DNA of 64,000 nt from Euglena gracilis (lineage: Eukaryota): the NCBI GenBank assembly GCA_039621445.1, contig CP154954.1, positions 33,395,455-33,459,454 on the forward strand, in the 5' to 3' direction. This document shows positions 5,501-58,016 of the stretch, piece by piece (positions within the stretch are counted from its first letter, which is position 1; each line of letters begins with the position of its first letter). Position numbers and translations under genes: made by a program. The notes under the pieces are model-generated. The model was not told the DNA's origin. It worked only from the letters and a program-made list of their open reading frames with translations, and did no database searches.

Positions 5501-8500
5501 GCAGGGTTCAAAATCAATGTCAAAAAGTCAACCCTGCAGCCCACCCAAATTGTAAATCATCTTGGATTCCAACTAAACTTCCAAGAGGGAAAATTACAGG
5601 TGCCCCCTCAGAAAATAAAAACAGTAAAAAAGGAGCTGGGAAAAATGGTGAAAAAAGATTACATGTCAAAAAGGCAATTGGCTGCCATTTTGGGCCAAAT
5701 AAGGTGCAACCTGATGGCCCTGCCCTTTTTAAGGGCTTTTACAGATTCCCTGACAAAATTTTTAGTGGCAAATTCCACAGCACCCTGGGATTCAAAACAT
5801 CCCATTTCACAGGGAATAAAGGCCCAATTGAGGGAAATAAAAATTCTACTGGACACCTGGGGGGGCAGGCCCTTCCCCCAAAATGCAACAAGAGAGTTGC
5901 ACTCAGACAGCAGCACCCATGCCTGGGGGGGGCTGGACATTCGAACTGGAAAAATCGTCCAAGAGTTTTGGAGAGAAAACTCCACTTTGCACATCATTGT
6001 AAAGGAGTTAAGTGCAGCCATAAGCACAGTAAAAAGTCTCAGCAAGCCAGGAGAAACTGTGTCCCTGTCAGTGGACAATCAAGTAATTTATTATTATTTA
6101 ACAAAAGGTGGGGGCAAGAAAGACCCGTTCAACACAATGCTAAGACCATTTTTCAAATGGTGCATGGAGAAAAATGTCAATCTCCAAGTAAACTGGGTCC
6201 CATCAAAGGAATGCCTGGCAGACCCCGTAAGCAGATGGGAAATGGACAGGGGGGACTACTCACTCGACCCCAAACTTTTTCACTGGCTGAAACAGCAATT
6301 CAAAAATTGCATAAATCTAGAAACAGACCTTTTTGCCTCCCCAGGCAACAGAAAACTGCCACAATTTGTGGCCAGGTGGCCCCACTGGGAAGCCACAGCA
6401 GTGGACGCTTTACAATGTCCACTGGACAACATGGGGGATCTTTATGCAAACCCCCCCTGGTCTGTAATCCAACAATTTCTCCCCAGATTAAGAATGTTTC
6501 CACGGACCAAAGTTTTGATGGTCACCCCCTACTGGGATTCAGCCACATGGTGGCCCCAATTAATAAAAATGAGAGTTCCAGGGACCCCCTGCCTAAAAAT
6601 CACCCCCTACAGGGGCATGTTCACCAATTGCAGGGGGGAAAAAATGCCACCCCCCAGGTGGCCCCTCCTTTGCATGATTTGCTCAGGCAAATTTTGGAGG
6701 GGAAACAAGTACAAAAATCAACCATTACAGATTTCCTGGGAAGAAACCCCAGTTTGAAAAGGTACCAAAGTGCCTTTACACTTTTATGGGTCATTGGACA
6801 AAATGGGGGTGCCCCCCCCCAAAGCAACCACAGACCAAGTGGCTGACGCTTTAATTCAACTTTTTCAAATGTCAAAGGCCCAGGCCCGTAATGCATACAG
6901 TGCTGTGCTTTTGATCCCTGGCTTGGGTGGCCTAAGGTTTAATACCTTATTAACACCTTACAAAAGGCTTTGGAACCAGAATCTGGAAAAATATGGTGCT
7001 TTTTGGGATCCCCTCCCAATCCTCCTGGGGCTGGCAAGGCAGCCTGTGCCTACTGATATTTGTGCATTGCGCACACAGCTCATTTTTTGTTCACGCATCC
7101 TGTGTTTATACCGTTCATCTGATTTGGCACAAGTCAAAAGAACCACAAGTGTGTTGGGGGGGGCACCCTACATTCAAATCAAACGTAAAGGACAGAAATT
7201 CCACAAGTGGGAAAGAGTTGTGTCAATTCCCCACTGTCCCCAAATCAGTCCCTTTCATTTAATTATGGCTTGTGTGGCCGCAACCCGATTTTACGTAAAG
7301 CCTGGGGGTCCCCTTCTGATTTCCTTAAAACCCCCCTATACACCCATAAGTGCTGACACAATTGCTTCTATTACAAGAGAATTTTTGACCAAACAGGGGG
7401 TACCCCCCCAGGTGTGGGGACCCCACTCCACCAGAGGGGCAGGGGTTGGGTTGCTCAAAAAATTGGGCCTTTCAGGCCAAGAAGTTTGTGAAATTGGGCA
7501 ATGGAAAGGGGTTGAGGCCTTTACAGCCCATTATCAAAGACTGGGTGCCCAAGGTACCTTGGAAAATGCCCTGGCCCCCCTCATTTCAGTGCACAATCTG
7601 GCCTCACAATGGCAAAGTGCGGAGCCCGAGGTGTCTCGTACTCCCTCGAGGAAAACCGACAAGGGAGGAAGGGACACCGAGGGCGGAGCACAAAGACATT
7701 GTGATCCCGACCCCCCCCTCCCTTTGAAAAAATTTGTCTTCAAACGCCCTCGGTCAGAAAGTGGGGGCCAGGGGGGGGGTGGGGGTAGGGGCTGGTGGGT
7801 ATATCTTTTTCGACGCCGAAGGTGCCGAAAATTTTTGAAAAAGGTGCTTTTTTTTTTTAGCATTTTTTCCATTTTCGGGCAAAAGTGGGTGGGTCCCCCG
7901 GGACCCCCCCTCTCCCCCGGGGGGGGCCACCCCAGGGGGGGGGTGGCCCCTCCCCCCCTCCCCCCCCGGTCTTAAAAAAACCCCTGGTCAGGCGTGAGGG
8001 AAGTTACCTCCCTTCATAAATCTATTGACAACTCGCCCTGCACGCCATTGGGGCATTTTCTGCACCACCTGTCGACATTTTGGCAGCCTCCTTGAGTGAC
8101 GCTGCTTCCGATCTGGAGTGCAAAGTCGTTTGGGTCGGCCTGGTTAAGACTCAACATTCAACCGGGAGAAACCACAACTGTAAGAATACTCACAGGCACG
8201 CACAAACCCAGTCAAGCGGGGCACAAGAAGCCAACAGAGTGTCCTGCTCCACGAGAAACCAGTTGGCAAAAGGCAGGCTTCTTGGGACTTGAAAAATCAG
8301 CAGCTTCTCAGTCTTGTTTCCAGCGTCCATGACCGAACTTCCTGCATACCTCCTAAGGCAACCCCCCGCCCCTCGGACCACTGGGGCCTGGACAGTTGTG
8401 CTGCCCTTGGACACAACCTCTCGGCACACCGGGTTGTGGCGATGCTTCGGGTGGGGCACGATCAAAAAGGTCCGCACACCGCCGGCCGGCATTCACGAAC

Positions 8501-30169: not shown

Positions 30170-32735
30170 CTGCTGCGGCAGGTCATTGGCTTGAAAATGT
30201 TTTGAATAACTGACCGGGGGGGGGTTGCATAACGATTCCCTGTGTTGTTCAGTGGACATTGCAATGCATCCACTGCTGTGGCTGCATTGCTGTGGCTGCA
30301 CTGCCCACCTGCCCACAAATTTGGGCATTTTATTCTTGCCTGGGGAGGCAAACAAATTTCTTTCTAAATGTGTGAATTTTTGAACTACTGTCTTAAAAAT
30401 TGAAGAATTTGGGGATATAAAGAGTAATACCCCTGTCCATTTCATTTATGGGGTCTGCCAGGCAGTCTTTTGAAGGCACCAACTTGACTTGTAGGTTTAC
30501 TTGGTGCTCTATGAACCATTTGAAAAAAGGTCCTAGCATTTTGTTGAAGGGGTCCTTTCTTCCCCACCTTTTGTCAGGCAGTAATAATCTCCTGGTTGCC
30601 CACTGACAAAGAAACTGTTTCTCCAGGTTTGCTTAAACGTTTTGCAGTGCTGATTGCTGCACTCAACTCTTTCAAATTTATGTGTAAAATGCAGTTTTCT
30701 CTCCAACATTTTTGTATGATTTATCCTGGGCGGATGTCCAGCTCCCCCACCCCCGCAGGGCATGAGTGCTGCTTTCTGAGTACAACTATCTGGTTTCATT
30801 TTGGGGGAAGGGTCTTCCCCCCAGGTGTCCAGCAGAATTTTGATTTAACTTAATTGGGCTTTTATTTCTTCAAAAATGTTGTGTTTTATGTCCCAGGGGG
30901 CTGTAGAATTTTGCACTCAATTTTTCTCAGGAAATCTGTGAAAGGCCATTCAAAAGGGAAGGGCCATTAGGATGCACCTTATCTGGCCCAAAATGGCAGC
31001 CAGTTGCCTTTTTGACCTGGAATATTTTTTAAAAATTTTGCCCAGCTGCTTTTTAAGGTCTTGACTTTTTGGGCTGGCACGTTCAATTTTTCGTCCAGGA
31101 AATTTGATTGAAAACCCAAATGATTTACCATCTGGTGGGCTGCAGACATTTTATGTTTATATTGAATCCTAATTTGTTAAATTTTACTGGTGGCCCGAAC
31201 CCAGCACATTTTGCAAAATCATCTCAACACCGTGGTCTGCGATTATAGATTTTCGAATGTTTTAATCGCACTCATGAAAATTTGTGGCATTACATTTAAC
31301 GCAAAGCAGCATCTCCGGAATTCCCAGGTCTGCTCCCCCTCTTGATGCCTTTAAAATGCCCTTAGGGCCTGGCCCACTGGGATGTGGAAATAGGCATCTT
31401 TTGAATCTATTTTGGGTTCCCAGTGGCCTTTCTCCAGAACGAGAAAAGTGTGCTGGGTGTGATCCAGCCTAAAAGGTTTTACTTGGAACTGTTAATTTAG
31501 TTCCCTGCAGTCGCTTATCAACCTTCATTTGGTCTGACCACCGTCTGGTTTTAAAATTGGATTAGGTGTTGGGTGTCCGAATCCCCCACCCTCGTTAGGG
31601 ATCCAGATTTTTCGTAATCCTGCTTTGCTCAGGTCCAAATTTGATCTGGTTTTGGGGTGGGTGGACTGTTCGGGGTGCTGTGACAAGGAGGGGTTGAATG
31701 CCATCCTTTATGAGTTGACATGTTGCGGGGGGGGGGAATGTTTTCTCCACCATTTCAGGCTTTTTTGCAGTCTGTGATGCAAGGGGATGTCTTCCCGTAT
31801 TTTCTCAATAGAACTGATTTCCTGAACGAGATGATTTTTTGGGGTCTGGACATTTCACAGCCTCTGAGGCCCTTAGGGCTTGATTCCTGGGTGTATGTGC
31901 ATGCACTCTCTCCCTCTATTCTCACACTCTCTAAGGATGACCTTGTTGTTGGTTTCCATACCATAGGGATTACTGCAACTGTTCTGCCTGTCTTCCTCCT
32001 TGATGGTGATGGTGTTGGCCGTACCATAGGGGGGCCTCTGGTGGTCCCTTCCTTGTTCAATCAACAGGAATAAGTGCTGGTGGGGAGTCTCCCCCGTCCT
32101 GTTCCTCCTGGTTGGCCCTTGGAGAACTATCCTCCTGGGGCTGGGGCTCCTCTTGGAGCTCCTCCTGGCGCTGCCCATCTAAATTCAAAGCCCTTTCACG
32201 GCTGCCCCTTAGCTTCTGGGTGTCCCCTGGCTGTTGCCTCTGCCCCTTCCGGGGTCTTCCGTGGCTTTCACTTTTTTTTTGGTTTGGGTTATGGAAGTTT
32301 CTTTTGAGGAAATTTCTTTTGGGGAAGGGGCAGCCACGGTTCGCCACGGTCGACCCGCGTCGTCAGGTTATCCAGCTGCTGCAGCTGCTCCCTCTTGAAA
32401 GTATCTAGCGCGGTGCTTCTTTGAAATTGCATCTTTCATTGAATTCTTTCAAAAAATTATAAAATTTTGGATTTGAGGTTCGTGCACGAGCGTGTCTTTC
32501 TGGATAATTTGAATTGAGTGTCTTCTTCTTCTTTCAATTGACAAGGTATTAGACGTCCCTGTCTTCTGCGTGTCGAAGGATAAATTAAAAATCAGCCAAC
32601 AGAAAACTAAGCGGGACCTCCTGACACCACGCACCTAAACAATCCATACAACACCGCCGGCGCGCATGTGAGGCCTTTGTGCCTCGCCCTCGGTCCCCTT
32701 CCTCCCTTGTCGGTTTGCCTCGAAGGAGTGCGATA
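30170..32735 (-). mobile_element. DIRS family 1, copy B, heavily degraded, YR missing
   Basis: It is colinear with copy A (NLFASPGKNKMPKFVGRW, RT remnants, RGPPMV..ESACT) and has an ITR at ~32570-32665. Confidence 0.85.
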
Positions 32736-33564: not shown

Positions 33565-34975
33565 AGCCGACCAGGGAGGAAGGGACACCGAGGGCGAAGG
33601 AAAAGGACATTGTGAGGCCATGCCTTGCTCGCCGGCGGTTTGTTGTGATTGTTTTGGAGCGGTGGGTTAGGAGTCCGCGCTTAGTGCCGCCTCGCCCGAG
33701 TTGGCTGCTGATGCTTCTCCGACGTGACGACGTGGCTTCTGTCCCCTGGGGGGTCCGCCTCTCTCCGCCCCCTGGCCCCCATCTTCTGACCGAGGGCGTT
33801 TGAAGACAAATTTTTTGACATTGGTGGGGGGGTCGGGATCACAATGTCCTTGTGCTTCGCCCTCGCTGTCCCTTCCTCCCTGGTCGGCTTGCATCGAGGG
33901 AGTACGAGACACCTCGGGCTCCGCACTTTGCCATTATGAGGCCAGATGCACTGAAAAAAAAGAGGGGCCAGGGCATTCTCCAAAGAACCTTGGGCTCCAA
34001 GTCTTTGATAATGGGTTGTGAAAGCATCCACCACCTTCCACTGACCAGTTTCACACCATTCTTCGGCCGAAAGTCCCAATTTTTTGAGCAAACCAACCCC
34101 TGCCCCTCTGGTGGAGCGTGGTCCCCAAACCTGGGGGGTGACCCCATGTTGGGCTAAAAATGTTTTTGTAATGGAAGCAACTGTATCAGCACTTATGGCT
34201 TTATAACAGGGTTTTAACGAAATTAAAAGGGGCCCCCAGGTTTCAAAAACAAACGTGTTGCTGCCACATAAGACGTCATCAAATGAAAGGGACTGATTTG
34301 GGGACATTGAGGAATGGGGAACAATCCTTCCCAGTTATAAATTTTTTGACCTTTGCGTTTGATTTTGATGTAGGGAGCCCCTCCCAACACACTGGTGGTT
34401 CTTTCGACCTTTGCCAAATCAGACGAACGATATAACAGAGGATTCTGCAGCAAAAAATGAGTTGTGTACGCAAGGTACAAATATAATCGGGCAGGGGGGG
34501 GGTGTGTCAGCCACAGGAGGCTTGGGAGGGGATCCCAAAAAGCACCGTACTTCTCAAGATTTTGGTTCCAAAGCCATTTTAAGGGCTTAACATGCCATGG
34601 AACTTCAGGCTGCCAAAGCCAGGGATTAAAAGCGTAGCACTGTATGCATTACGGGCCTGTGCCCTTGAATATTGAAAAAATTGTATAAAAATGTCAACCA
34701 CTTGGTCGGTGGTGGCTTCAGGGGGGGGGTACCCCGTTTTCTGCAGAATTACCCATATAAGCATAAAGGCGTTTTGATAACGCCTTATGCTGGGGTTTCT
34801 TCTCAGGAAATCTGTAATGGATTGATTTTGAATTTGTTTCCCTTCCAAAGTTTGCCTGAGCAAATCATGCAAAGAAGGGGCATTTTTTCTCCCCTGCAAT
34901 GGGTGAACATACCCTTGTAGGGGTGATTTTCAGGCAGGGGGTACCTGGTACTTTCGTTTTTATTAACCGGGGCCA

Positions 34976-35613
34976 TGGAAGTCTCATAATATTCTTTTGT
35001 TTTTATTGAAATCCTCGGATTCCCAATTTTTCTTGATATCCCAATTGTCCCAAAAGACGTAACACAATCAATGTAATGACATAACCAGAGCCAGCAGTCT
35101 GCACAGGAGGAAAGGTTCGAATTAGGAATACAAAGTTCGGTTCAGGCGGTTAGTAAATAGTCCGCACACGCCCCCCATGCCGGAGGACGCGGCGCCACAG
35201 GCACAGGACGAAACAGCATCACACCACAAACAAAATGGCTTTACTATGGTTCAAGCACGAATGAATGGTGTTCAACACGAATTGTCCACAAAAAAGGTTC
35301 AGAACGACAAATCTCAACACAAAGGAAGGTAAAAGAGGTTACTTCCGACGTTCAACGTGGTCCCTTCGCTTCGTGGTTGGCTTGCCCTTCAAAAGTAACA
35401 CAAACCTGGGCGAAACTCCTCGCATCAATGGCAGGTTTGTGACTGAAAGCCTTCAAAGGTTAGACAAAAATCCACCCATGGCGAGGCGGGTTGGTGTCTC
35501 CTGACCCGAAAAACCATCCAAAAGGCCCCCTGGGGGGCTTGACTTTCCTCCCGCGTGACTGAAAGCACGATCAAAACATTTGGGGGGAGGCCAGGCTGTC
35601 TCTTGAGATGCCA
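34976..35613 (-). repeat. Gypsy 3' LTR (~638 bp)
   Basis: It starts TGGCATCTCAAGA after purine-rich GAATGCGAATGGGGGT and ends GAGACTTCCA. The last ~123 bp are repeated at 41833-41955. The start coordinate is inferred from terminal complementarity. Confidence 0.75.
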
Positions 35614-36897
35614 ACCCCCATTCGCATTCTGAAACGTCGCAAAACATTCTGAGCGCCTGGCGTAGGATCGATTGTAAATTGTGATCCACACAATAATTCT
35701 TGAAAACCTCATTCATTCTGCCTCCTGGTTGCACAAAGGAAGCCACGGGCTCCCATGTACTGCTGCTTGCCGGAAAATTCTCCCACCAAACCAAAAATTT
35801 CCATCCCCCTTGGTACTTGTGCTTCAAAATCTTGTAAACATTGTAAAAACCCATTTGTGCTTGTTCTTCTTCTGACATCTGAAGGGGGGGATCCCCTCCC
35901 TGGTCTGGCATGGGGGTGTCACCCTCCACTGGGTCTCCCACAACCACTTCACCGGTCAAAAGGTCTGGGTCTTCTTCCAAAAGGCTTTCTTCATGCAAAG
36001 CAACCTCCCACCTTTTGCACAAACCCAAAGAGACATCAATGACCCCTCCCAAAGATGGACTACTTGCAATTTGCACTGAATTGAACCTCGATTTGAGAAC
36101 CCGAAAAGGTCCTTGCCAGGGGGGGGAAAGCTTGGGCCATGATTTGTTTGGCCATCTTTTGTTGTGCACCAAAACATAGTCATCTTCTTCAATTTTTGCT
36201 GGTACCCTCCCTTTGTTGGCACTCTCAAAATCTTTTTTCCTCAATTCTTTCAATCTCTGGGAAGCTCTTTCTTGAATTTCCATCTGGGTCAAAAGCCAAG
36301 AATGGGTTTCTGGATTTGTCACCGGTTCTGGGGGTAATTCCTACCTCCAAGCTGGTCTGCCCAAAAACATTTCATGGGGTGACAACATTGTTGTGGGGGA
36401 AATCTGCGAATTCATCAAAAATGTGCAATACGGGATCAGCTGCACCCAATTTTTGTCCTTGGAAGACAGACTCAATGCTCGCATATTTTGCAAGAACATT
36501 TTATTGACATTTTCAACCAAACCGTTTGATCGGGGGTTCCGGGGCAGAGAAAACGATAATTTCACGTCGAGAGCTTTCAGGGCTGTCTGATAAAAACCAC
36601 TGGGCTGTCTGAATCGCACGTCGTTGTCAGACCTCACAACGGATGGTTTTCCAAAAACAGAAATCCACCGGTCCAAAATAAGCCTCAAAACACCTTCTCC
36701 GGTTACCGTTTTCTGTGTGGGGATGAATTGGCAAAATGGGACAAATTGTCAACCAAAGTCAGCACATAGTCAAAACCATTGTAGGGGTCCATTTGCACAA
36801 ACTCCAAACACAAAAATTCATTGCTCACTGTTGGAATCGGTAAAGAACCCACCTTTCCACGGTCACTGGGGCGGTTTTGTTTTGAAAGGGTGCAAAT
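35453..36897 (-). CDS. Gypsy integrase core, GPF motif and chromodomain (interrupted by stops/frameshift)
   Basis: FGKPSVVRSDND and PRSNGLVENVN (DDE core), KLSPPWQGPFRV, and chromodomain YNVYKILKHKYQGGWKFLVWWENFPASSSTWEP. Confidence 0.9.
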
Positions 36898-39182
36898 TCA
36901 ACATGTCATCACAATGGCCCTGCAAATTTCCAACATGTCTTTCTTGGAAACCTTGGACTGAAAATGGCTAAAAAAAAACAACAATGTCCTTTCAGCACCA
37001 ACATGGTTGCTTGCCTTGTGACATTCATCCAAACAAACTTTCAACAAATGAGATGGAACAACCAACTTGCCATCACAATACATGGCCTTGGCAGATCTGA
37101 ACCAAAACTCATTGTCAATGAAACAGGGTTTTGAAACCTCCACTTTTTCCCAAAAATCCTTCAGCTCTGAATTCAAATAATCCTTTTCTGACACTTGCAC
37201 TCTGTGGGACAAACTGAAAATCTTCTGCAAAAACAGGTCAAGCTGCACATCCATTTTCTGAAAAGCGTTCCTTGCTTCTTTCTCAAAATGAATTTCAAAT
37301 TTGTTCTCAAAATCCGCACGAGACAGAAAATCACACAATTCATTTTTGCAACCTGCCACATGTACGATATTCAGTTTGAACTGGTGCAAAAACACATACA
37401 TCCTTCTCAGTCTTTTGTTGAGGGTGGGTTCACCCTTCAGGAAAGAGGTGGCTGCCTCATTGTCTGTCATCCACACAATTGGCAGGTTTTGCAAAATCCT
37501 CGTTTTTGAAGCAATGGTCAGCACACCACTCAAAATTTCTTTTTCCCAGGTAGTGTATTTTTTTCTTGCCTCACTCCATTTCCAGTTGTAGTGGCCCAAG
37601 GGCACCAACCTCATTTCACTGGGGTAGTTGTTTTTCAGGGTCCCATCCACCTTCACACCAGTTGTTCGAAAATTCTCAGGAATTTGTGTTTGTTGGAGGG
37701 TTTGCCACTGAAACAAAGCAGAACCACCTCCCAAATCCGAACTGTCAGTCACCAAAACAATCTCTCCTGAACTCCTGGGGGTACCCAAAACATCAAGAGA
37801 AGACAATTTCCTTTTCAATGCATTCAAACAACTCTCCTCCTTTTCAGTCCACCTCCATTTCACATTCTTTTTCAGCAGATCTGTGAGCGGGGCTGAGTCA
37901 AAAGTAAAACCTTTCACGTGTCTGCGGTAGAAATTCATGGCTCCCAAAATTCGCCTCAAATCCCTTTGATTCTGAACTCGAAAACTCAGAATTGGTTCAA
38001 TGTTTCTTTTGTTTGCCTGCCACATTCCCCATCCCAACGAGAAACCCAAATAGTCAATGGACTGATTCAGAAAGGAACATTTGCTCAATTTGATTCTCAC
38101 TTGGTTCTTTCTGCAAACTTCAAACCACTTTTCCAAAAGATACAAATGATCCTCTTCAGAGTTTGCACCAACCCCTGTGTCATCAAAAAAAGAAGCCAGG
38201 TGTCCATCCTTCAAAATCTCTCTCACCCTCAAATCCGTTTTGCATTGGGAGGTTAGAATTTCCATCAGCTCCTGAAAAATACCCGGTGCATTACTTAGGC
38301 CAAACATCATCCTTTTGGGACGAAAACACCTCCCAGATGGAATGCAAAATGCAGACAAATTTGCTGCTCTTTTTGTGATTGGGATTTGCCAATACCCACT
38401 CCTCATATCCAGGGTACTTTTCCAGCGACATTTGCCAAACTTTCAATCAAAACCTCCATGCTTGGCAAATAACCTGCATGTGCCTTGCTTCTGGCATTCA
38501 ATTTTCCATAATGGATGACCATCCTTCTGGTACTTGACCCTTTTTTGTCCACCAAAAATGTGGGGCTGCACACCTGGGTGATTTCACCAACTGGGAATTG
38601 CTCAATCAACCCTGACTTTAGCAATTCTTCACACTGAAGGTCAATTTCTTTTTCATCCTCCTGGGGCATGGGCCAACACTTTTGCCTTAGGGGTTTGCCT
38701 TCCCATTCAGGCTTTAGCTCAATGTCCATCAAAACAGGCAGGGGGGAAGACTCAGAAATTGTGGGCAATGGTCCAAAAACATCAGAAAATTTCACCAAAA
38801 GCTCATACAACCTGGGGTGGTCTCTGAATTTCTCAACTTCTTTTTCAAACTCTCCACTCAGATTCTCAGTAAACAATTTGCTGCTTTTTTCATCAGCCTT
38901 TTTCTGGGTCTCCAAAGTCCAAATCTTTTCATGCAAAACTTGGGAAATGCTTTTGAGTTCATCCATCTTGATTGTTGCCTTGGGAGTTTTCACAGGTTTT
39001 GCAAACTGAACATCTTCCACAGGCTGGGCCAGCTGGAAAAACATCACCTCCACATCTTTTCTCACCTCCTGAAAAAGACTCAGCTCACTTTCAATGTCCT
39101 TGGTCAACTCAGCCAAAAAATTGATGTTTTCATGCTCATTCATTGGTTCAAACACCACCACATTGTCCAACCACTCTTTCAC
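36898..39182 (-). CDS. Gypsy RT, RNase H and integrase zinc finger (frameshift near 38430)
   Basis: SPTFLVDKK..RMVIHYGKLN, MRSGYWQI, MMFGLSNAP, FFDD, VTDSSD, EKEIL, TDN, and H-x4-H..C. Confidence 0.93.
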
Positions 39183-39197
39183 CTTTTCTTCTGATTC

Positions 39198-41318
39198 CTA
39201 GGGGGGAACATTCTCCAAAGGAAAACTGGGACTTTCAAAAACTTGCTTGTCTGCAGGTGGACTGGCAGGCTGGGGTGCCTGCTGCAGGGGGGGAACATCA
39301 GGAAGATCTGGGAAATCAACTTGAATTCCATCATCCACTGTGGGGTACTTCCTGATCTCACCTCTCAGTTCATCCAAACTCCAATTCCTTGAAACTTTTC
39401 TGAGCCAACTGACAATTTTGGGGTCCAAAAGCTCAAAATCCACTTTGAATTGCACAGTGTCCACCACACTCACAAAAGTGTTCCACAGGGCGGAGGGCAG
39501 CACCTTTTTGCACCTGTCACCCACAAACAAGGGAACCCCACTTGAAATTTTCACCCTGGCCACAGTCACCCTTTCCAGCAGGGGGGACCAGTACTGATCC
39601 ACCCAGTCTGGGTGTACCAGGACCATTTTTGTTTCTTCAATGCACAACTTTGTCACCACCTTGCTTAGTTGGCTGAAGGGGGGGTTTGCCCACAGAAACT
39701 TGGAAGCACCAATGTCACACAACAACCTTTCCCATGAATACCTGTAGGCTGAATTCCCTTTCGTCATGTACAAAGACTGGGTGTGGTTCAGGTGGTTTGC
39801 AAAAAGATCAATGCAAATCTGACCCTCAGAAATCTTCAATTCATCCAAAGCTTTTGTCTTCACTGGCTTCACCAAAGTGTAGCTTTCTGTCTTGAAAAGT
39901 CTGAAAATTCTTTTGATGGTGTGGTCCCCATCATGGCTCTGAAGTAAAAACTCCTCACCATCAATGGTGATTCTGGGGGGTCTGGTCAGCAACCCACCAA
40001 AAAATTCACTTTCAGTAAAGTCAGTCCCCAAAACTGCCTCGAAGGCATTTGTTTCAACAACAACCGCTTTAAGCTTTAGAATTTTTCGTCCCAACTCCAA
40101 ACTCACCTCACACACTCCTTCACAAAAAATGTACTCCCCGTTGCCGATCTGCAGGGGTACCGTAGCACTCCGTTGAATTTTATTCTCTGGAACACATTTC
40201 TTAGAAACTGCAGTTATGGTGGCCCCAGTGTCCAAAATTGCTTGAATTTCCTTTCCATAAACCCTCACTGGCAAAAGATAAGTTTTACACACCATCTGGA
40301 GCAATTGTAAAGCATTAGCCTTTCTCTTTTTGGGGTCCTCACCCTGGGGGGTAACCTGGGTTTGCACTCCCTGGGGTTGAACCGAAGGGGTCCCTTTGCC
40401 TGCCCCCTTCTGGGCTGCTGCCTTCTTTTTCTCAAACTTTTCTTTTGACCAACATCTGTCTTCATAATGCCCTTTTTTGTGACAAAATCGACAGAAAATT
40501 GTGGCTCCAAATCGTGGGGCTGGGGTGTCATCAACTTTTCTTTCACCCTTGCCTTTGCCTTTTCCTTTGCCTTTTCCTTTTCCACCAGATTTTCCACCTT
40601 TTCCAGATTCTGGGACACTTTCACCAACTTTTTCAGATTGATCAGGGGGTCTTTCAATCAATGGTCTGAGATTTTCTTTTTTCAGCAAATTCCTCTCCAA
40701 CCAATCTTCAGAACTTTTCTCCAAAATTGTTTTTCTCAAATCTGTGAATGTCTCAGAACGATGTTTGTAAAATCTGTCTGCCCTGATGTCTGCATACATT
40801 CTGGGGTGTAATTTCCTCAGCAAAACCAAAAACTTTTCCTGTTCACTCATGGCCTGGGGGCTCAACCTGGCCATCAAATTGTCCAATTCAATGAAAAGTT
40901 TTTTGATGTCTTGGGGTTCAGGGTTCTGGGAAAGTGCTGGCAATTTGTCAATGGCAGATCTCAAAGTCATGTCATTTTCCAATGTTGGGAACAAATTTGC
41001 GATTTCCAACAGCACTTTTTCAAAATCATCATTCTCATCCATCACTTTTTCAACCAGTTTTTTTACCTTGGGGGTGCAACATTCCAACAGCCAATCCTTT
41101 TTCTGGACATTTCCAAATGCAACAGCACCAGTTAACCTCAACCATCTGCCAAAATCTTTCAAAAACTCTGGCCAATTTGTGCCATCAAACTCTGGCAATT
41201 TCACAGGGGGTAATCTTGAACTTTGGGTTGAACTTTGGCTGGGGTTGCTGGAATTTGGTTCAACAATTTGCTTCAGAAATGTTTCAACCTGGGTGATGGG
41301 GTTCACAGGGGTAAACAC
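39198..41318 (-). CDS. Gypsy gag, zinc knuckle, aspartic protease and Dam-like adenine methyltransferase
   Basis: LPEFDG, CRFCHKKGHYEDRC (CX2CX4HX4C), ILDTGA, then ESYTL..IDLFA..WANPPF..LVHPDW..W. Confidence 0.93.
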   Translation of the reverse strand: MFTPVNPITQVETFLKQIVEPNSSNPSQSSTQSSRLPPVKLPEFDGTNWPEFLKDFGRWLRLTGAVAFGNVQKKDWLLECCTPKVKKLVEKVMDENDDFEKVLLEIANLFPTLENDMTLRSAIDKLPALSQNPEPQDIKKLFIELDNLMARLSPQAMSEQEKFLVLLRKLHPRMYADIRADRFYKHRSETFTDLRKTILEKSSEDWLERNLLKKENLRPLIERPPDQSEKVGESVPESGKGGKSGGKGKGKGKGKGKGERKVDDTPAPRFGATIFCRFCHKKGHYEDRCWSKEKFEKKKAAAQKGAGKGTPSVQPQGVQTQVTPQGEDPKKRKANALQLLQMVCKTYLLPVRVYGKEIQAILDTGATITAVSKKCVPENKIQRSATVPLQIGNGEYIFCEGVCEVSLELGRKILKLKAVVVETNAFEAVLGTDFTESEFFGGLLTRPPRITIDGEEFLLQSHDGDHTIKRIFRLFKTESYTLVKPVKTKALDELKISEGQICIDLFANHLNHTQSLYMTKGNSAYRYSWERLLCDIGASKFLWANPPFSQLSKVVTKLCIEETKMVLVHPDWVDQYWSPLLERVTVARVKISSGVPLFVGDRCKKVLPSALWNTFVSVVDTVQFKVDFELLDPKIVSWLRKVSRNWSLDELRGEIRKYPTVDDGIQVDFPDLPDVPPLQQAPQPASPPADKQVFESPSFPLENVPP

Positions 41319-41816
41319 AGACTGACTGCTGCTGGCTGATTTATTTCCAATTCCTGCAACCTTCTTTCCAAATCTTCAATGGAGGACATTTCTGCAGATC
41401 ACTTTCAAAAAACTCAACCACTGGCTCTGAAAACTGGGAGAAACAGAAACACTGGCCAACCCAAAAAACAAACAAAAACTGAAGAAACCAGAACAGAAAA
41501 CCAACCAATTGGTTCAGGACCAGGTCAGCAAGATGATGAAGAACTTGCCTCCACCAAGATCTTGTTCTGGACAGCAAGGTGAACAGCAGCACTTACAAAC
41601 TTCCTCAACCAAATAACCAAAACAACAACTGTTGACAAACTCTCCACTGTGAACTTGTTCACCACAGCCTCAATGTCAACTTCTTGTTGAAGATGTTGTT
41701 CTGTACCAGCAACTTGGTTAACCTTGCCTTCAGGAACACCAACTTCTGGAACTTCAAAAACCAGTGAAACAATGTTGAATCTCCTCGAAGACGTCTTGGA
41801 CGATTGGAACAACAAA

Positions 41817-41828
41817 CCTCTGCGACCA
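41817..41828 (-). promoter_or_regulatory. Primer binding site, tRNA-iMet-like
   Basis: TGGTCGCAGAGG lies 4 nt after the LTR-terminal CA and has one mismatch to the animal-type iMet PBS TGGTAGCAGAGG. Confidence 0.75.
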
Positions 41829-41832
41829 ACTT

Positions 41833-41955
41833 TGGACGTCTCAGAATATTCTTTTGTTTTTATTGAAGTACTCGGATTCCCAATTTTTCTTGATATCCCA
41901 ATTGTCCCCAAAGACGTAACACAATCAATGTAATGACATAACCAGAGCCAGCAGT
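41833..41955 (-). repeat. Gypsy 5' LTR remnant (R-U5 part only)
   Basis: Near-identical to 34976-35098. Confidence 0.95.
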
Positions 41956-41981
41956 CGAAAAAAAATAGACACTCAGAAAGT
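41956..41981 (-). other. Euglenid spliced-leader exon sequence (retro-copied, not an SL RNA gene)
   Basis: ACTTTCTGAGTGTCTATTTTTTTTCG matches the 26-nt Euglena SL as I recall it. It is not followed by a GT donor. Confidence 0.93.
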
Positions 41982-44900
41982 GGCTGAATCCCAGTAAGGG
42001 GGTTACCATCAAAACTATGTTCGGCGGAAACATTGTAAATCTGGGCAGGAATTTTTGAATTGCTGACCAGGGGGGTTTTGCATAAAGGTCCCCCAAATTG
42101 TGTAGGGGACATTATAGTGCATCCACTGCTGATGCCTCCCCGTGGGGCCATCTGGCCACAAAATTGGGTAATTTTTTGTTCTCTGGGGAGGCAAATAAAT
42201 CTGTTTCCAAAGTTATGAACTGTTTGAAATGTTGATTGAGCCATTGAAAAATTTGGGGGTCCAGTGAGAAATCCCCCTTGTACCTGCTTAAGGGGTCTGC
42301 AAGGCATTCTTTTGCAGGAACCCCCTTTTTCTTGCAGGTTTATTTTGTGCTCCATGCACCATTTGAAAAAAGGTCTGAGCATTGTGTTGAAGGGGTCTTT
42401 TTTGCCTCCCCCTTTTGTCAGGTAATACAAAAGTACCTGATTGTCAACTGAAAGCAGAACTGTTTCTCCAGGTTTGCTTAGGCTTTTTATTGTGGTTATT
42501 GCTGCACTTAGTTCTTTGACATTTATGTGCATCGTGGACTTTTCCCTCCAAGATTCCTGCACAATGTTTCCTGTACGGATGTCTAATCCCCCCAGGCGTG
42601 GGTGCTGCTGTCTGAATGCAACTCCCTTGTGGCATTTTGGGGGAAGGGTCTTCCTTCCCATGTGTCCAGCAGAAGTTTTATTTCCTTTACTTGGTTTTTT
42701 ATTTTTGGTGAAATGTGATGTTTTGAGTCCCAGGGGGCTGTGGAGTGTTTTGCCAGAAAATTGGCCAGGGCATCCGTAAAAGCCCTGAGGATGGGCAGGG
42801 CCATCAGGTTGGACATTATTTGGCCCAAAATGGCAGCCAGCTGCCTTTTTGACATGAAATTCCTTTTTACATTTTTTCCCAGATCCTTTTTGATGGTATT
42901 GACTTTTTTTTGGGGGGGGTACTTGTAACTTTTCTTCTTGGAAGTTTAGCTGAAACCCCAGGTGGTTTACAATCTGGGTGGGTTCCAGGGTTTACCTTTT
43001 TACGTTGATTTTGAACCCTGATTTTAATAAATCCCTGACGACTGTGTTCAGGTGATTTTGTAGGGTGTTTCTGGTAGGGGCCACCACCAAAATGTCGTCC
43101 AGGTAAATGAATAGGTGGATGTATCTTTTCCTCCACAACTTTTCGAATGTTTCTATGACCCCCATGAAAATTTGGGGCATAATCTTCAGGCCAAAGCAGC
43201 CTGCTTGGAACACCCAAGTTTGCCCCCCTACCTGATGCCTCAAAAAAGGCCGTTGGGCCTGGCTCACTGGTATGAGAAAATAGGCATCCTTTAAGTGTAT
43301 TTTGGTTGCCCACTGGCCTTTTCCCATAATTGGGAAGATGTGCTGGATGTGATCCAGCTTGAAAGGTTTTACCTGGAACTGCTGGTTTGATTTCCTGCAG
43401 TAACTTATGAACCTCCACTTTGTTTCCCCCCCTCTGGTTTTGAAATTAGAGACCAGGGAATTAGATGTTGGGTTCCTGTATCCCGAACCCGCTTTATGGA
43501 CCCAGATTTTTCGTAATCCAACGGTATTTTTTTCTGCTTGGGTCAGGTTTAGATTTGCCCTGAATTTTGGGTGGGTGGACAATTTTGGGTTTCTGTCCCA
43601 GGGGGGTTGGATGCCATCTTTGGTTAGTTGGCAGGTTGCTGGGGGGCATTTTCGTTCCACCATTATAGGCTGTTTTGAAGTCTCTGGTGCAGGGGGGTGT
43701 TTTCCCACTTTTCCTCCATGGAAGTTATTTCTCCCAGCAAGTGTTTTTGTGGGGTTGTGGGCTGGGTTGATGACCATTTTCCATCCCATGGACACTTTGG
43801 GATGAATGCTCTGACCTGCTGATGGGTGGTTGGGAGAATGCAACCCCTGGGTTTACAGGAGGTTGTCGAAAAACTGCAGGGAGGGTGTGCATGCATCTCT
43901 CACACTCTCTCTGGTGACCCACTCTGATCTTGTTGTTGGTAGACATACCATAGGGGGGGCTCTGCGGGTCTCCCCCTTGGGTTGATCTTCCCCTGCCATG
44001 GGCAAAACAAAAAGATTTGACAGGGGGGCCACTGTGGGTTCCCTGTCCTCCTCCACAAGGTCCACTGTGGGTGGTACCTGGTCCCCCTTGTCCAAGGAAA
44101 GGGCCTCTGTGGGTCCCTTTGGGGGGTTTTCCTGGGGCTGGGCCATGCAGTAAGGCCCTTTCGGGCTGTAGCTGGTTAGCTTCTGGCTCCCAGGGCCTGT
44201 AAATTGATTCCCCCAGTGGGCTTGAAATTGTTGGCCGTAATGGCCTTGGCCCCCATGGCCTGGTTTGGCTTGATTTGATGTGGGTCTCCAGCTGCATGTG
44301 AAGCCTTGGGGGGCCTCTGTGGCCCCCCCTTTCCCCTTTGAGGGGTTGATAATGGGCGACATTTTGGGGGTTTTAAAAGACCTTTTTGCCCCGTCCAGTG
44401 GGCATGTGCTTGCAGAATTGGCCTCCAAGGCCTGGCCGATGTTGTCCCCCTTGGCCCTCATTCCATCTCCCCGTACGGGGGTTTTGAATTGCTGGGGACT
44501 TTGGTGGATGACCACCTTGGGGCCTCCATTGCTGCCCCTTGTGGGGGACAGGGCCCAACTTCTGGTTGAATGGGCTTGGTATTGGTTTTCGCTTTGGTTT
44601 CTTGGCCACCAATTGCCAAGGGCTGTGTCTGTCCCTTTTTGGGGTTGATGAATGTTCTGAAAAGGAAATTTTCTTTTGGGGAAAAGCCACGGATTGCCAG
44701 ATGGAGGCCGCACCAGCAGGTTCTCCAGCGGTATCTTCTCGGGCACGGTGTTGACCAGCTGTTACTTCTGAGCTCGTAGGTCTTTCATAGTTCGTTGAAT
44801 TAAATCTTTTCAAATTCCAATTCAACTTGATATTTCGGTCTTGACCACAGCTTCAATGCTAAATCCTGGTGTGGATGCTGTTCTCAACGAGGGAGTCGGT

Positions 44901-47750: not shown

Positions 47751-49535
47751 TACTTTTTTAGGAGGGGGTGAAAAAATTTGGTCAAAAAAATCGGACCAAA
47801 TTTTGGCACAATCAAATTTTAGTGAGATTTTTTCTCTTGGAATTTTTTGGATTTTCAATGGCATTCCTTGCTTCCAAAACGTGTCAAAATCAAAATTTTG
47901 AGTGTTGAAATTTTGGAAGGTGTGAAAAAATGGGGTTTTGGGGGTTTTTGGGGGGACGTCCTATATGGATCCCAAAATGGGTCCAAAATACACCCGGTGC
48001 CAAAGGCGCTGGGAAAAAAATTTGGGGTCCAAAAGTTGGTGCTCCCGGAAATAGGGGAAGAGGTGGTGGGGGGGGTCGACCCCCCCCACCAACCATGGAG
48101 GGGGGGGGGGGCGGTGGTCGACCCCCCACCCTGGCCGATTGCCGTCTGCCCTGGCCCTGGTTATGGAACGAAAATTTTCCCCAAGCCAGAGGGCTTGGGG
48201 AAAATGCTTGTTGGCTCACACCCGTTTTTGGGCAGGGAAAGGTGGTTTGAGACAACATCAGTTGTTGGAACTTCCCAGGAGCGCATCAACGCCGGAAAAA
48301 CTGAGTTCAGTTCTGTTCGTTGAGAGGCCAATGCGCTGTCGCAGCTGCCCACCGACATCCTTTGACAGGCAGAGAGGGCATGGGCCCAAATAACTGACCC
48401 CCAGGGCGATGTGCAGGGTGTGCAACACGAAGTCCACCAGCCTGAAGGGGTTGCTGAGGTACAGTGTTGCTGTCTGGGGAGCACACAAGAAGGCAGAGAT
48501 GACCAGACATTAGGACATTGGACATTGGAAGAAAAAAAAGGTGAGGGCACGCTGGCGGATGGGGGGGATGGGGGATGGGGAAGGCAAAGGAGGGGAGAGC
48601 CCTGGGTGTCGGACGGGAGGGCGGGGGGGGGGGGGGGGAGGGGAACGTGGCAGGGGGATGGGGATGCCAGTGGGCGGGGCCGGGGACTGCCAGAGTTGTG
48701 GGCCCTGCCGCACGGCAAGGCTCACACAGCTAAAGCTCAAGCCAAAGCTCACACTCACAAGCAAACTCCAAACCGGGGGATGCGAGAACGGCTGGGCCTG
48801 CGGTTCCCATCAGGGGGGGGTTCAATATGTGAAGACTGGAAAACTCAGGGTCTCTGTGAATGCTGTGAGGATCTCTGAAACAGGGCCATCCAGCAGGTGG
48901 AAAAGGGGGAAACACAGAAACGGCACTCATGCAAACTTGGCCCTCCAAGATTGCCCCCCCCCCCGGCCTTACCTTCAACCAAGTCCCAGACCAAGCGCTG
49001 GGGCGGGGGGCGGGGGGGCATTTTGATGTGAAGAAATGCTGGTCATCAAAATTTCAGTGTGAGGCTTTGGCTTCTCACAAACGGTTCGAAAGTGGGATGT
49101 CCAGCTCAAAATTTGCGTTGGGTTGCATTTTCGGAGTGCCATGCGCAAAATAAGCCAAAAAAGCCTAAAAATGGCGGGCGAAGATCGTTTGGGGGGGCCA
49201 ACTTTGCATGCAAGAAGGTGGGGGGGGGGGGGCGCGCATTGGGACGAAATCTTAAAAAAAAGTAGGAAAATCGGGGGGTCTTAAAATTGTTAAATAGTTT
49301 GGACCTTTATTTGCACCTATTTTTGACCAAACCTACTTTATATATGCCCAGTTCCCCCGGGAAACAAAAGACCACTCTTTTTGTTTATTTATTGTCTTTT
49401 TTGAAAAAAAAATATGAGCAATTGCCAACATAAGTTGATATACAAAACTTCTTGCTCATCAGAAGGTGGTTGGTTTGGAAAGGGGGAACAGCGTAAAGCC
49501 CCACCATTAGGGGAGGGTTACGGTAGGAGGAGGCT

Positions 49536-49935
49536 CCGTAGGAGGAGGCTCTAGAGCCTCCTCGAACACTGTTCGAGGAGGCTCTAGAGCCTCCTCGAAC
49601 ATTGTTCGAGGAGGCTCTAGAGCCTCCTCGAACGTGGTTCGAGGTCGTTCGAGGAGGCTCTAGAGCCTCCTCGAACGTGGTTCGAGGTCGTTCGAGGAGG
49701 CTCTAGAGCCTCCTCGAACGTGGTTCGAGGACGATCCAGGAGGCTCTAGAGCCTCCTCGAACGTGGTTCGAGGACGTTCGAGGAGGCTCTAGAGCCTCCT
49801 CGACCGTCGTTCGAGGTCGTTCGAGGAGGCTCTAGAGCCTCCTCGAACGTGGTTCGAGGGCGTTCGAGGAGGCTCTAGAGCCTCCTCGAACGTGGTTCGA
49901 GGAGGTTCGAGGAGGTCCTAGAGCCTCCTCCTACG
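49536..49935. repeat. Left array: about 10 copies of the 30-bp palindrome GTTCGAGGAGGCTCTAGAGCCTCCTCGAAC
   Basis: Linkers are 3 nt or 13 nt (gtggttcgaggtc). Confidence 0.97.
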
Positions 49936-49997
49936 TACATACATCTGGGTATCAGGAGTCCAGGAAAACAATTTTCAAATTGATCTCTCCATCTGTG

Positions 49998-50056
<59 letters not shown>

Positions 50057-50099
50057 GAATGTCTCCCAGTATCATTCCTGTATCTGCAATAGACTTTTG

Positions 50100-51272
50100 T
50101 CTGCCAACCCCTTCTCGGGTGCAAGTCGACGTAACCCTATCCCTTTCATTAACAAAATAAACCCCTTTTATCCGCCAACCCCTTTTATCCGCCAACCCCT
50201 TCTCGGCTGCAAGTCGACCTAACCCTATCCCTTTCATTAACAAAATAAACCCCTTTTATCCGCCAACCCCTTCTCGGGTGCAAGTCGACCTAACCCTATC
50301 CCTTTCATTAACAAAATAAACCCCTTTTATCTGCCAACCCCTTCTCGGGTGCAAGTCGACCTAACCCTATCCCTTTCATTAACAAAATAAACCCCTTTTA
50401 TCCGCCAACCCCTTTTATCCGCCAACCCCGTCTCGGCTGCAAGTCGACCTAACCCTATCCCTTTCATTAACGAAATAAACCCCTTTTATCCGCCAACCCC
50501 TTCTCGGCTGCAAGTCGACCTAACCCTATCCCTTTCATTAACAAAATAAACCCCTTTTATCTGCCAAACCCTTCTCGGGTGCAAGTCGACCTAACCCTAT
50601 CCCTTTCATTAACGAAATAAACCCCTTTTATCCGCCAACCCCTTCTCGGGTGCAAGTCGACCTAACCCTATGCCTTTCATTAACGAAATAAACCCCTTTT
50701 ATCCGCCAACCCCTTCTCGGGTGCAAGTCGACCTAACCCTATCCCTTTCATTAACGAAATAAACCCCTTTTATCCGCCAACCCCTTCTCGGGTGCAAGTC
50801 GACCTAACCCTATCCCTTTCATTAACGAAATAAACCCCTTTTATCCGCCAACCCCTTCTCGGCTGCAAGTCGACCTAACCCTATCCCTTTCATTAACAAA
50901 ATAAACCCCTTTTATCCGCCAACCCCTTCTCGGGTGCAAGTCGACCTAACCCTATCCCTTTCATTAACAAAATAAACCCCTTTTATCCGCCAACCCCTTC
51001 TCGGGTGCAAGTCGACCTAACCCTATCCCTTTCATTAACAAAATAAACCCCTTTTATCCGCCAACCCCTTCTCGGGTGCAAGTCGACCTAACCCTATCCC
51101 TTTCTATAATCAAATAAACCCCTTTTATCCGCCAACCCCTTCTCGGGTGCAAGTCGACCTAACCCTATCCCTTTCATTAACAAAATAAACCCCTTTTATC
51201 CGCCAACCCCTTCTCGGGTGCAAGTCGACCTAACCCTATCCCTTTCATTAACAAAATAAACCTCTTTTATCT
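50100..51272. repeat. 16 x 71-bp tandem array
   Basis: caagtcgac recurs 16 times with period 71. Two units are 88 bp because of a 17-bp internal duplication. Confidence 0.97.
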
Positions 51273-51516
51273 GCAGGTGAACAAATTTTGCAGGCAGGCA
51301 GGCGCAGTCATTAAATTTGCAAACAACAAAGGAGCAAAGCAAGAGCAGCAGTAAGCCAAAGCCAAGCCACCACACACAATCTCTCTCCTTCCCTCTCCCT
51401 CCCTCCCTCCCTCCCTCCGTCCCTCCCTCCCTCTCTCTCTCTCTCTCTCCCTCTCTCTCTCTTCGAAATCGGTATTCTTTGCTTTCATCGTACTCCGCGA
51501 TGAAGACGTTGTCGAT

Positions 51517-57552: not shown

Positions 57553-57596
57553 GAAAATAGAAGCACAGTCTCCTGATACGGTGAAGCATATACACA

Positions 57597-58016
57597 GGAG
57601 GAGGCTCGAGATTTCGTTCGACGAGGCTCTAGAGCCTCCTCGAACGACCTCGAACCACGTTCGAGGAGGCACTAGCGCCTCCGAGAACGACCTCGAACCA
57701 CGTTCGAGTAGGCTCTAGAGCCTCCTCGAACCTCCTCGAACCACGTTCGAGGAGGCTCTAGAGCCTCCTCGAACGACCTCGAACCACGTTCGAGGAGGCT
57801 CTAGAGCCTCCTCGAACGACCTCGAACCACGTTCGAGGAGGCTCTAGAGCCTCCTCGAACATGGTTCGAGGAGGCTCTAGAGCGTACTCGAACGCGGTTC
57901 GAGGAGGCTCTAGAGCCTCCTCGAACCACTTTTAAGCCCCCCCTAGAGGGGGGGGGGCTTAAAAATGTTCGAGGAGGCTCGAGGTCGAACGCTCGATCTC
58001 GAGCCTCCTCCTACGG
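57597..58016. repeat. Right array: about 8 copies of the same 30-bp palindrome, inverted linkers
   Basis: The linker gacctcgaaccac is the reverse complement of the left linker. An extra hairpin ttttaagccccc..gggggcttaaaa lies at ~57930-57964. Confidence 0.97.

Follow-up and report, generated by a model that had tools for sequence, protein, structure and literature searches.

The analysed stretch of DNA (the window, 64 kb in length) carries on its minus strand an LTR retrotransposon inserted into an older repeat that encodes a reverse transcriptase (RT); all features of the element given below lie on this strand. The 5′ side of the element is formed by a partial LTR of 123 nt (41833-41955), comprising U5 and the part of R downstream of a putative trans-splice acceptor (R′), with an AATAAA motif about 30 nt before the LTR end. 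A candidate primer-binding site (PBS), TGGTCGCAGAGG (41817-41828), was predicted 4 nt (AAGT) past the LTR end. The search for tRNAs in the window (ARAGORN) gave two calls only, both situated in a 43-nt tandem repeat and taken as spurious. One stop-to-stop frame (39198-41375) encodes gag-like, aspartic protease (40017-40271) and Dam-like (39630-39827) parts, ends at an in-frame stop and is resumed in 38403-39197. The next open reading frame (36898-38442), shifted relative to the upstream one, encodes RT (38038-38436), RNase H (37378-37851) and, as a weak match, an integrase zinc-finger (36919-37059). It is followed by fragments of the integrase core in two frames (36344-36897, with weak rve/rve_3 matches at 36476-36679) and by the C-terminal part of integrase with a candidate chromodomain (35453-36340, chromodomain at 35741-35845). 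The element terminates with the 3′ LTR (34976-35354), whose CA end at 34976 is firm; its start was placed near 35354 by guesswork, guided by a purine-rich stretch and a TG, the window having no second full LTR.

The scores above the cut-off were obtained for gag-asp_proteas (41.6 bits), RVT_1 (74.9 bits), RT_RNaseH_2 (44.0 bits) and RT_RNaseH (32.1 bits), and the weak integrase matches (Integrase_H2C2, 15.3 bits; rve, 12.3 bits; rve_3, 15.0 bits) occur in the expected place and order. The chromodomain match (E = 2.4e-5) reaches 24.6 bits versus a cut-off of 25.1. The Pfam Dam match (E = 8.9e-5) scores 22.7 bits, under the cut-off of 28.1; the translation of the Dam-like stretch contains an NPPF motif and gave no match at E ≤ 1 among PDB sequences. 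The order protease, RT, RNase H and integrase on one strand, by which Ty3/gypsy elements are recognized, with the chromodomain match after it, bears out the initial annotation, in which a gypsy element had been proposed. Domain order and content identify it as a chromovirus-like Ty3/gypsy copy in a state of decay. It lacks two complete direct LTRs: the 5′ side retains no more than the final 123 nt of the repeat, with a spliced leader (SL) in place of the rest. Copies with the full 5′ LTR exist elsewhere in organism A, as one contig in each of the runs X15 and X17 joins 34991 to 41802.

The borders of the insertion were determined by comparison with an uninterrupted paralog of the host repeat (4767-7778, plus strand), which represents the empty site, and with empty-site contigs of a DNA run. 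The upstream flank (41982-43754, minus strand; RVT_1 at 42995-43852) and the downstream flank, the continuation of the same older repeat (33765-34975, minus strand), were aligned to this paralog with 79% identity (41980-43754 to 6546-4767) and 81% identity (33765-34975 to 7778-6551), respectively. Positions 6546 and 6551 of the paralog are the counterparts of the two borders, and the insertion corresponds to 34976-41981. Because both flanks align to one continuous paralog, the inserted DNA spans the region from the SL to the CA of the LTR; on this alignment the insert opens with the SL (41956-41981, minus strand) and closes with the CA terminus of the LTR. Contigs of the DNA run join 34966, 34959 or 34940 to 41980 with 10-38 letters between (at least four such letter strings), and a fifth joint among the matches listed links 34942 to 41997, so the host repeat also exists in copies that lack an insertion here.

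At the site the paralog reads ...CAGCCAC ATGG TGGCCCC, in agreement with the empty-site contigs. The 5′ flank of the insertion ends with ...GATTCAGCC(AC) and the 3′ flank starts with TGGCCCCGG. Target-site duplication of the 4-6 bp made by the integrase of Ty3/gypsy elements was not found, GATTCAGCC(AC) having no repeat in the 3′ flank. The host-repeat paralogs (79-81% identical) are distant and differ in a TGG unit (3 nt) at this very position, hence in the statement that 0-6 nt were lost and no duplication was made only the missing duplication is sound. We regard the insertion, nested in the older RT-encoding repeat, as an old and real event. An assembly artefact, in which a cDNA-derived or chimeric read introduced an SL-headed transcript into the genome, would be favoured by the repeat flanks and the great abundance of the family (18,227 X2 contigs aligned to the stretch), which raise the risk of mis-joining, and by the observation that among the matches listed no DNA contig bridges the flank to the SL. 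Such a chimera is nevertheless very unlikely given the outermost position of the SL in the inserted DNA: on either side the 7-kb insert borders on one host repeat, at points 4-6 nt apart in the paralog, an arrangement that a chimera should not yield, and the right end is the LTR terminus rather than a transcript end.

There are organisms in which nearly all mRNAs undergo trans-splicing, and the spliced leader is added to RNA only; its presence in DNA at an insertion border is thus direct evidence that an RNA with a trans-spliced leader had been copied into DNA. The minus strand at 41981-41956 reads ACTTTCTGAGTGTCTATTTTTTTTCG and matches the published Euglena gracilis SL in 26/26 positions; the initial annotation had taken the 26-mer for the host SL. 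The leader as printed in PMC6242988 is the same 26-mer. It is the sole match in the 64-kb window with up to three mismatches allowed, and none of 100 shuffled sequences contained a match; a chance match was rejected. The 3′ part of the SL (19 nt) was likewise found once in the window, with a match in 2 of 100 shuffles. The first two nucleotides of the SL (AC) are also letters of the target site and may derive from either, so reverse transcription may have halted 2 nt before reaching the cap.

Immediately after the SL come 123 nt (41955-41833), and the 3′ LTR ends with a second copy of them (35098-34976) that shows five differences (95.9% identity). The first 21 nt after the SL, ACTGCTGGCTCTGGTTATGTC, occur in exactly two copies in the window (41955-41935 and 35098-35078), and twice in 0/100 shuffles. 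A repeat search extends the common block to 124 nt since the last G of the SL coincides with the G of the acceptor AG, which leaves the joint with an ambiguity of 1 nt. The differences at 5 of the 123 positions may reflect either age or two different template RNAs. In the 3′ LTR the sequence AACCTTTCCTCCTGTGC-AG, which has a polypyrimidine tract, stands directly before the block, and its AG lies at 35100-35099, where the initial annotation had placed it; the tract (13/16 pyrimidines) and the AG (35099-35116, minus strand) form the predicted SL trans-splice acceptor. When the sense strand of the element was scanned for AGs with at least 13 pyrimidines among the 16 upstream positions, 7 of 509 qualified; in the LTR region it was one of nine, and this one is the AG of the junction. 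The claim that the SL replaces U3, exactly at an acceptor, has to be modified: the joint does lie at the acceptor, and the replaced part is U3 together with whatever outron portion R may have. The junction motif had 0 matches in metagenome contigs. Among the matches listed for Logan contigs (X2, X15, X17 and X20) none crosses SL-ACTGCTGG, which is uninformative as contigs cannot show RNA ends.

The SL adjoining the 5′ end of the retroelement directly might alternatively be host DNA, if the element had been inserted within an SL RNA gene or beside one in the manner of SLACS, CZAR or CRE. The metagenome contigs supplied controls: seven SL matches in six loci (L001-L006), all of them SL RNA genes. 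In 7/7 of these the SL is followed by the GTAT... of the SL RNA gene intron, with a AATTTTTGG-type stretch downstream, whereas in the window it is followed by the LTR sequence and the element itself by host-repeat sequence. An SL exon continuing into such an intron (GTAT..., Sm-like site), or an intron taken up again past the element, would be expected of an SL RNA gene or of a SLACS-type insertion. The SL RNA intron is present on neither flank, the empty-site paralog and the empty-site contigs are devoid of the SL, and the full SL ends exactly at the acceptor of the element. The outermost position of the SL in the inserted DNA excludes a pre-existing SL RNA gene, and insertion of the SLACS type, hardly conceivable here, was rejected for want of a flanking intron and of an SL at the empty site. 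At least four contigs of the runs X15 and X17 have the SL and 4-8 nt in common with the window copy and then diverge, which fits the same leader on other mRNAs of organism A. In one X15 contig the SL and the first 8 nt of R′ are shared and the sequence is then unlike for at least 255 nt; it could belong to a different gene or to a different family of LTR elements.

The right end of the insertion bears on the RT that made the copy. An SL-capped polyadenylated mRNA of the element might have been inserted as a processed pseudogene by a LINE-type (target-primed) or other foreign RT, a route that has been proposed for SL-tagged retrogenes and that would account for the SL at the extreme 5′ end and the absence of the integrase-type duplication, and RT of another element class is encoded nearby. 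However, the 3′ end coincides precisely with the terminus of the LTR, at which the similarity to the 5′ R′-U5 stops (34976 = 41833), and no A-run follows 34976, whereas such an mRNA would be expected to end, tailed, at a poly(A) site within the LTR. The 3′ end corresponds instead to the 5′ end of a tRNA-primed minus-strand DNA, and we consider the processed-pseudogene route unlikely. LINE-type retrocopies are recognized by a 3′ poly(A) and a target duplication of variable length, neither of which was found; this class was rejected on account of the 3′ end at the LTR terminus, the missing poly(A) and the missing duplication. It is quite improbable, too, that a normal two-LTR copy was inserted and its left U3 lost later, by deletion or by repair templated by SL-spliced RNA or cDNA. 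The copy is indeed old, its decay being evident from in-frame stops and shifted frames, and contigs of other copies read differently at three of the stop/frameshift places. Nevertheless, the deletion would have had to end exactly at the original border and to take one copy of the target duplication with it, and the SL abuts the host repeat precisely where the downstream flank resumes.

The structure of this single genomic copy is therefore best explained, in all likelihood, by an SL-trans-spliced genome-length RNA of the element that was primed by tRNA, copied up to the SL end and inserted by end joining. The template would be a genomic RNA whose 5′ end was made by trans-splicing at the AG lying 123 nt before the LTR end, so that the leader was joined to ACTGCTGGCTCTGG. 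Minus-strand synthesis would begin as normal at the tRNA primer site, which accounts for the right end being the U5 terminus (...CA) with no poly(A), and would proceed by first-strand transfer to the 3′ R and copying of U3 and the entire interior. It would then pass the PBS and run through U5 and R up to the SL-capped 5′ end, most likely on a second co-packaged RNA with an undegraded 5′ end. Plus-strand transfer being missing, the left U3 would not be rebuilt and the left end would have no integrase site. Such a “one-and-a-half-LTR” cDNA presumably entered a chromosomal break through end joining by the host rather than by normal integration, hence the absence of target-site duplication. The copy has the marks of an SL-tagged retrocopy, a 26/26 SL at the insertion border and a joint at the pyrimidine tract/AG of the 3′ LTR. 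The model of the initial annotation, that the genomic RNA is SL-spliced within the LTR and that cDNA extended to the SL end, agrees with the DNA in everything it predicts at this level: the exact SL, the joint at the one AG of the LTR that resembles an acceptor, and the gypsy-like element. The outermost position of the SL comes in addition. A right end at the U5 terminus with no poly(A) implies that strong-stop synthesis and first-strand transfer worked, so the copy is an aberrant by-product; it is no proof that SL-capped RNA is the normal template of the family.

Such SL tags are known from host genes of dinoflagellates, and here the tag is on the own full-length copy of an LTR retrotransposon in a euglenid. 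The copy points to a working trans-splice acceptor in the LTR, to SL-capped genome-length RNA that reached the reverse-transcription machinery of the element itself, and to a reaction apparently able to run off the capped end and give a product unusable by integrase. How LTR elements replicate where nearly all mRNAs are trans-spliced thereby becomes a question about a countable genomic feature. A literature search that combined Euglena transposable elements or retroposition with SL trans-splicing yielded no paper on SL relics in euglenid retroelements. A more tentative possibility is that this abundant gypsy-like family routinely relies on SL trans-splicing within the LTR to generate the 5′ end of its genomic RNA. 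If so, R would be set by a splice acceptor and not by the promoter start site, possibly on read-through transcripts, and strong-stop DNA would be transferred before, or despite, the 26-nt foreign leader. The SL-headed duplication-free “1.5-LTR” copies would then be a systematic failure product, usable as a genome-wide tag for counting events.

The elements SLACS, CZAR and CRE are site-specific non-LTR elements that interrupt SL RNA genes of trypanosomatids. Like in the present copy, SL sequence adjoins a retroelement in these cases, but the present copy does not interrupt an SL RNA gene: neither side has the intron, and the empty site is SL-free. SLACS is named in PMC10161547. The Euglena DAM-LTR or “EpiLTR” elements (bioRxiv 10.64898/2026.05.21.726589) are Ty3-like too and have a chromodomain and, between protease and RT, a Dam-like part, of both of which the present copy carries candidate counterparts; the Dam match here is under the Pfam cut-off (22.7 vs 28.1 bits). 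Nowhere does that preprint use the term “spliced leader”.

Insertion of LTR-retrotransposon cDNA that is independent of integrase, or its capture at breaks, is described for Tf1 (PMC11042837), mouse zygotes (PMC4516963) and yeast (PMC11372161), where, as here, retrotransposon cDNA enters the chromosome with no integrase hallmarks. According to PMC11042837 the Tf1 events involve single-strand homology at PBS/PPT and Rad52, whereas here only 1-2 nt of possible microhomology are present and, unlike in Tf1, the left end is the RNA 5′ end with the SL. The Ty3/gypsy element Cer1 of C. elegans, with SL1, is likewise a gypsy-group LTR retrotransposon with a functional SL acceptor, a predicted one in our case; according to PMC3315495, SL1 is found on the spliced 2.4-kb message only and the 8-kb gag-pol RNA is not trans-spliced at that site. 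Unlike in Cer1, the SL-headed template here would have covered the element in full, and its SL is preserved in the DNA. Dinoflagellate retrogenes with relic SLs (“mRNA recycling”; PMC3942190, PMC3229502; also PMC6050394, PMC12014239, PMC5585692) resemble this copy in that a retro-copied unit in the genome is headed by an encoded SL. Those are host genes carrying the 22-nt DinoSL, for which the responsible RT is given as unknown, whereas in this euglenid the copied unit would be the genome-length RNA of a retrotransposon, probably primed from its own PBS, with a full LTR at the 3′ end and a 26-nt SL at the 5′ end.

The 26-nt sequence ACTTTCTGAGTGTCTATTTTTTTTCG on the minus strand at 41981-41956 is identical in every letter to the Euglena gracilis spliced leader (SL) as printed in PMC6242988, and is included in the SL-specific primer quoted from PMC5654406. 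Even with up to three mismatches allowed, the window contains no other match (0 of 100 shuffles gave one), and the 3' 19 nt of the leader are likewise single-copy there. A 123-nt block (41955-41833) adjoins the leader directly and recurs at 35098-34976 with five differences (95.9% identity); the repeat search scores the shared block as 124 nt because the final G of the leader is also the G of the AG that precedes the other copy. This 3' copy is preceded by AACCTTTCCTCCTGTGC-AG, the AG lying at 35100-35099. When an AG with pyrimidines in at least 13 of the 16 upstream positions is taken as acceptor-like, 7 of 509 AGs on the sense strand of the element belong to this class and, within the LTR region, one of nine: the AG of the joint. 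The initial annotation had described an SL at the 5' end, its direct junction with LTR sequence and the pyrimidine tract with AG at 35099-35100, and has been confirmed in each checkable detail.

Between the two 123-nt copies, matches on the minus strand begin with a gag-like region that includes an aspartic protease of retroviral type (41.6 bits), followed by RVT_1 (74.9 bits), RNase H in two families (44.0 and 32.1 bits), integrase, matched weakly in the expected place (H2C2 15.3, rve 12.3 and rve_3 15.0 bits), and a chromodomain (24.6 bits, just below the Pfam cut-off of 25.1). The domain order is that of Ty3/gypsy chromovirus-like elements; the earlier assignment to the gypsy type holds, resting on the protease, RVT_1 and RNase H matches and the weak integrase matches. 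Four nt past the 5' block, on the minus strand, the sequence TGGTCGCAGAGG looks like a putative primer-binding site. A Dam-like stretch (39630-39827, minus strand; Pfam Dam 22.7 bits, below the cut-off of 28.1) is part of the polyprotein and separates protease from reverse transcriptase; its translation contains an NPPF motif, and no match was found among PDB sequences. The interior is complete and the copy is decayed: stops interrupt the frame near 39198 and 36341, and the frame changes near 38403-38442 and 36700-36900. Contigs from other members of the family read differently at three of these places.

Both flanks of the element belong to one other, older repeat, of which self-BLAST of the region revealed an unbroken copy elsewhere in the window. 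The upstream flank (41980-43754) aligns to 6546-4767 (78.9% over 1790 columns) and the downstream flank (33765-34975) to 7778-6551 (81.2% over 1234 columns). This host repeat carries its own reverse transcriptase (42995-43852, RVT_1 E = 3.6e-15) and is present in at least three copies, 72-81% alike, at 4767-7778 (+), 30200-31845 (+) and 33765-34975 plus 41982-43754 (-). The paralog reads ...GGGATTCAGCCAC ATGG TGGCCCCAATTAAT..., and the filled site reads ...GGGATTCAGCC[AC]TTTCTGAG... on the left and ...GAGACTTCCA joined to TGGCCCCGGTTAAT... on the right. Since the paralog is unbroken where the filled site is split, the inserted DNA is 34976-41981, with the leader as its first sequence and the terminal CA of the LTR, where likeness to the 5' block also ends, as its last. 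One or two nt per joint are attributable to either partner, and the loss of target is 0-6 nt, depending on a 3-nt length variation (TGG) among paralogs. Contigs of X2, a DNA run from another study, link 34966, 34959 or 34940 to 41980 with only 10-38 letters between, and represent additional copies of the host repeat that lack the insertion.

These borders bear on the obvious rival explanations. An assembly chimera would not be expected to place the two ends of a 7-kb insert a few nt apart in the host repeat. If instead the leader belonged to an SL RNA gene, the intron of such a gene should follow it, as in seven of seven leader occurrences in six metagenome contigs, which continue GTAT...; here the leader continues into LTR sequence, both flanks lack such an intron, and the empty sites are without the leader. 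Neither poly(A) nor a target-site duplication is present at the insertion. A processed pseudogene of the LINE type is contradicted by the right end, an LTR terminus without an A-run, which is where minus-strand DNA primed by a tRNA begins and not where a transcript ends. Later deletion of U3 from an ordinary copy would have needed an endpoint precisely at the former insertion border and would also have had to erase the duplication.

We therefore consider it probable that SL-spliced RNA of the element was copied and its cDNA inserted, by a mechanism that we infer in part. Genome-length RNA, its primary transcript starting in U3 or in an upstream read-through unit, would be SL trans-spliced within the 5' LTR. 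Minus-strand synthesis would start from the primer-binding site, accounting for the U5 terminus on the right, and would be transferred to the 3' R through the approximately 100 nt of R left after trans-splicing, followed by copying of U3 and the interior. Synthesis would then continue across U5 and R into the leader. The second, co-packaged RNA is the most plausible template for this step, since RNase H degrades the 5' end of the first template once it has been copied. With the complement of the leader at its 3' end, the minus strand could not have been extended with plus-strand strong-stop DNA as template, so that no left U3 would be made and the left end would lack an integrase site. The cDNA may finally have been joined into a chromosomal break, with which the missing duplication is consistent. 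The proposal that the element RNA is trans-spliced inside its LTR is supported at the DNA level, and the empty-site analysis, new here, extends it. The initial annotation had also asked how strong-stop transfer proceeds past a foreign leader, which the copy answers in part: transfer succeeded here, presumably through internal R homology, but the later steps failed and the copy is the product of that failure. A bolder reading, in which trans-splicing routinely supplies the RNA 5' end throughout the family, is possible but less likely than not.

Among 24 public sequencing runs listed, 20 contain part of the window, and in 16, which all derive from one organism, half or more of the sampled words of the window are present; the runs containing window sequence come from 16 studies. 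Four runs were compared with the window as assembled contigs at 90% likeness or more. The family is very abundant, with 18,227 contigs of X2 placed on the window. The small, presumed RNA runs X15 and X17 cover 30 of 30 depth bins, and each has one contig in which 34991 is joined to 41802, derived from a copy whose 5' LTR is full and continues into the leader region. In four contigs of the two runs likeness is limited to the SL plus 4-8 nt, followed by unrelated sequence, as other SL-capped mRNAs would give. One X15 contig (41948-41981) carries the SL and the first 8 nt (ACTGCTGG) of R', the part of R downstream of the acceptor, then at least 255 nt of unrelated sequence; its source may be another gene, or a different LTR family whose acceptor is equivalent. 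None of the contigs listed spans SL-ACTGCTGG in RNA or flank-SL in DNA. Summed contig depth in X15 and X17 is 246-1377 over 41442-41975 (the R'-U5-PBS-leader region) versus 13-124 in the interior; since contig depth is a poor measure, this hints at most at abundant short 5' transcripts or at shared sequence. In the leaf-litter metatranscriptome X20, 91 contigs at least 90% like the element (34500-42500) cover 26 of 30 bins (6 at 99% or more, 33 at 95-99%, 52 at 90-95%); an environmental RNA library therefore contains relatives of the family, although DNA carry-over is possible.

Other repeats occur in the window. Satellite-like arrays of 43-nt and 71-nt units with long (CT)n runs occupy 49517-51416 and 57572-57947; within them 49542-49849 and 57615-57922 are inverted copies of each other (94%) on either side of 7.7 kb of GC-rich sequence (GC 0.63 at 52-58 kb), and two ARAGORN tRNA calls inside the 43-nt array (49642-49738 and 49771-49867) are probably spurious. 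The direct repeats 20909-21172/22419-22682 (264 nt, 98%, 1.5 kb apart) and 16880-17073/19481-19684 (about 200 nt, 87-88%, 2.6 kb apart) could be LTRs of small elements.

The Dam-like stretch is reminiscent of the "Euglena DAM-LTR" elements described in a 2026 preprint (bioRxiv 10.64898/2026.05.21.726589), in which "spliced leader" occurs zero times. The literature searched on Euglena retrotransposons, retroposition and SL trans-splicing yielded no leader relics in euglenid transposable elements, though supplementary tables may differ, and that on trans-spliced LTR retrotransposons no euglenid case. Integrase-independent insertion of LTR-element cDNA has been documented for Tf1 (PMC11042837), and its capture at breaks in yeast (PMC11372161) and mouse (PMC4516963). 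The gypsy-like Cer1 of C. elegans has an SL1 site, and according to PMC3315495 SL1 is found on a 2.4-kb spliced message only, the 8-kb gag-pol RNA not being trans-spliced there. Dinoflagellates are a well-known source of genomic retrogenes with relic leaders (PMC3942190, PMC3229502; also PMC6050394, PMC12014239, PMC5585692), but the genes concerned are host genes. The copy described here is an SL-tagged retrocopy, of a known kind, but the RNA copied is the LTR retrotransposon's own genomic RNA.
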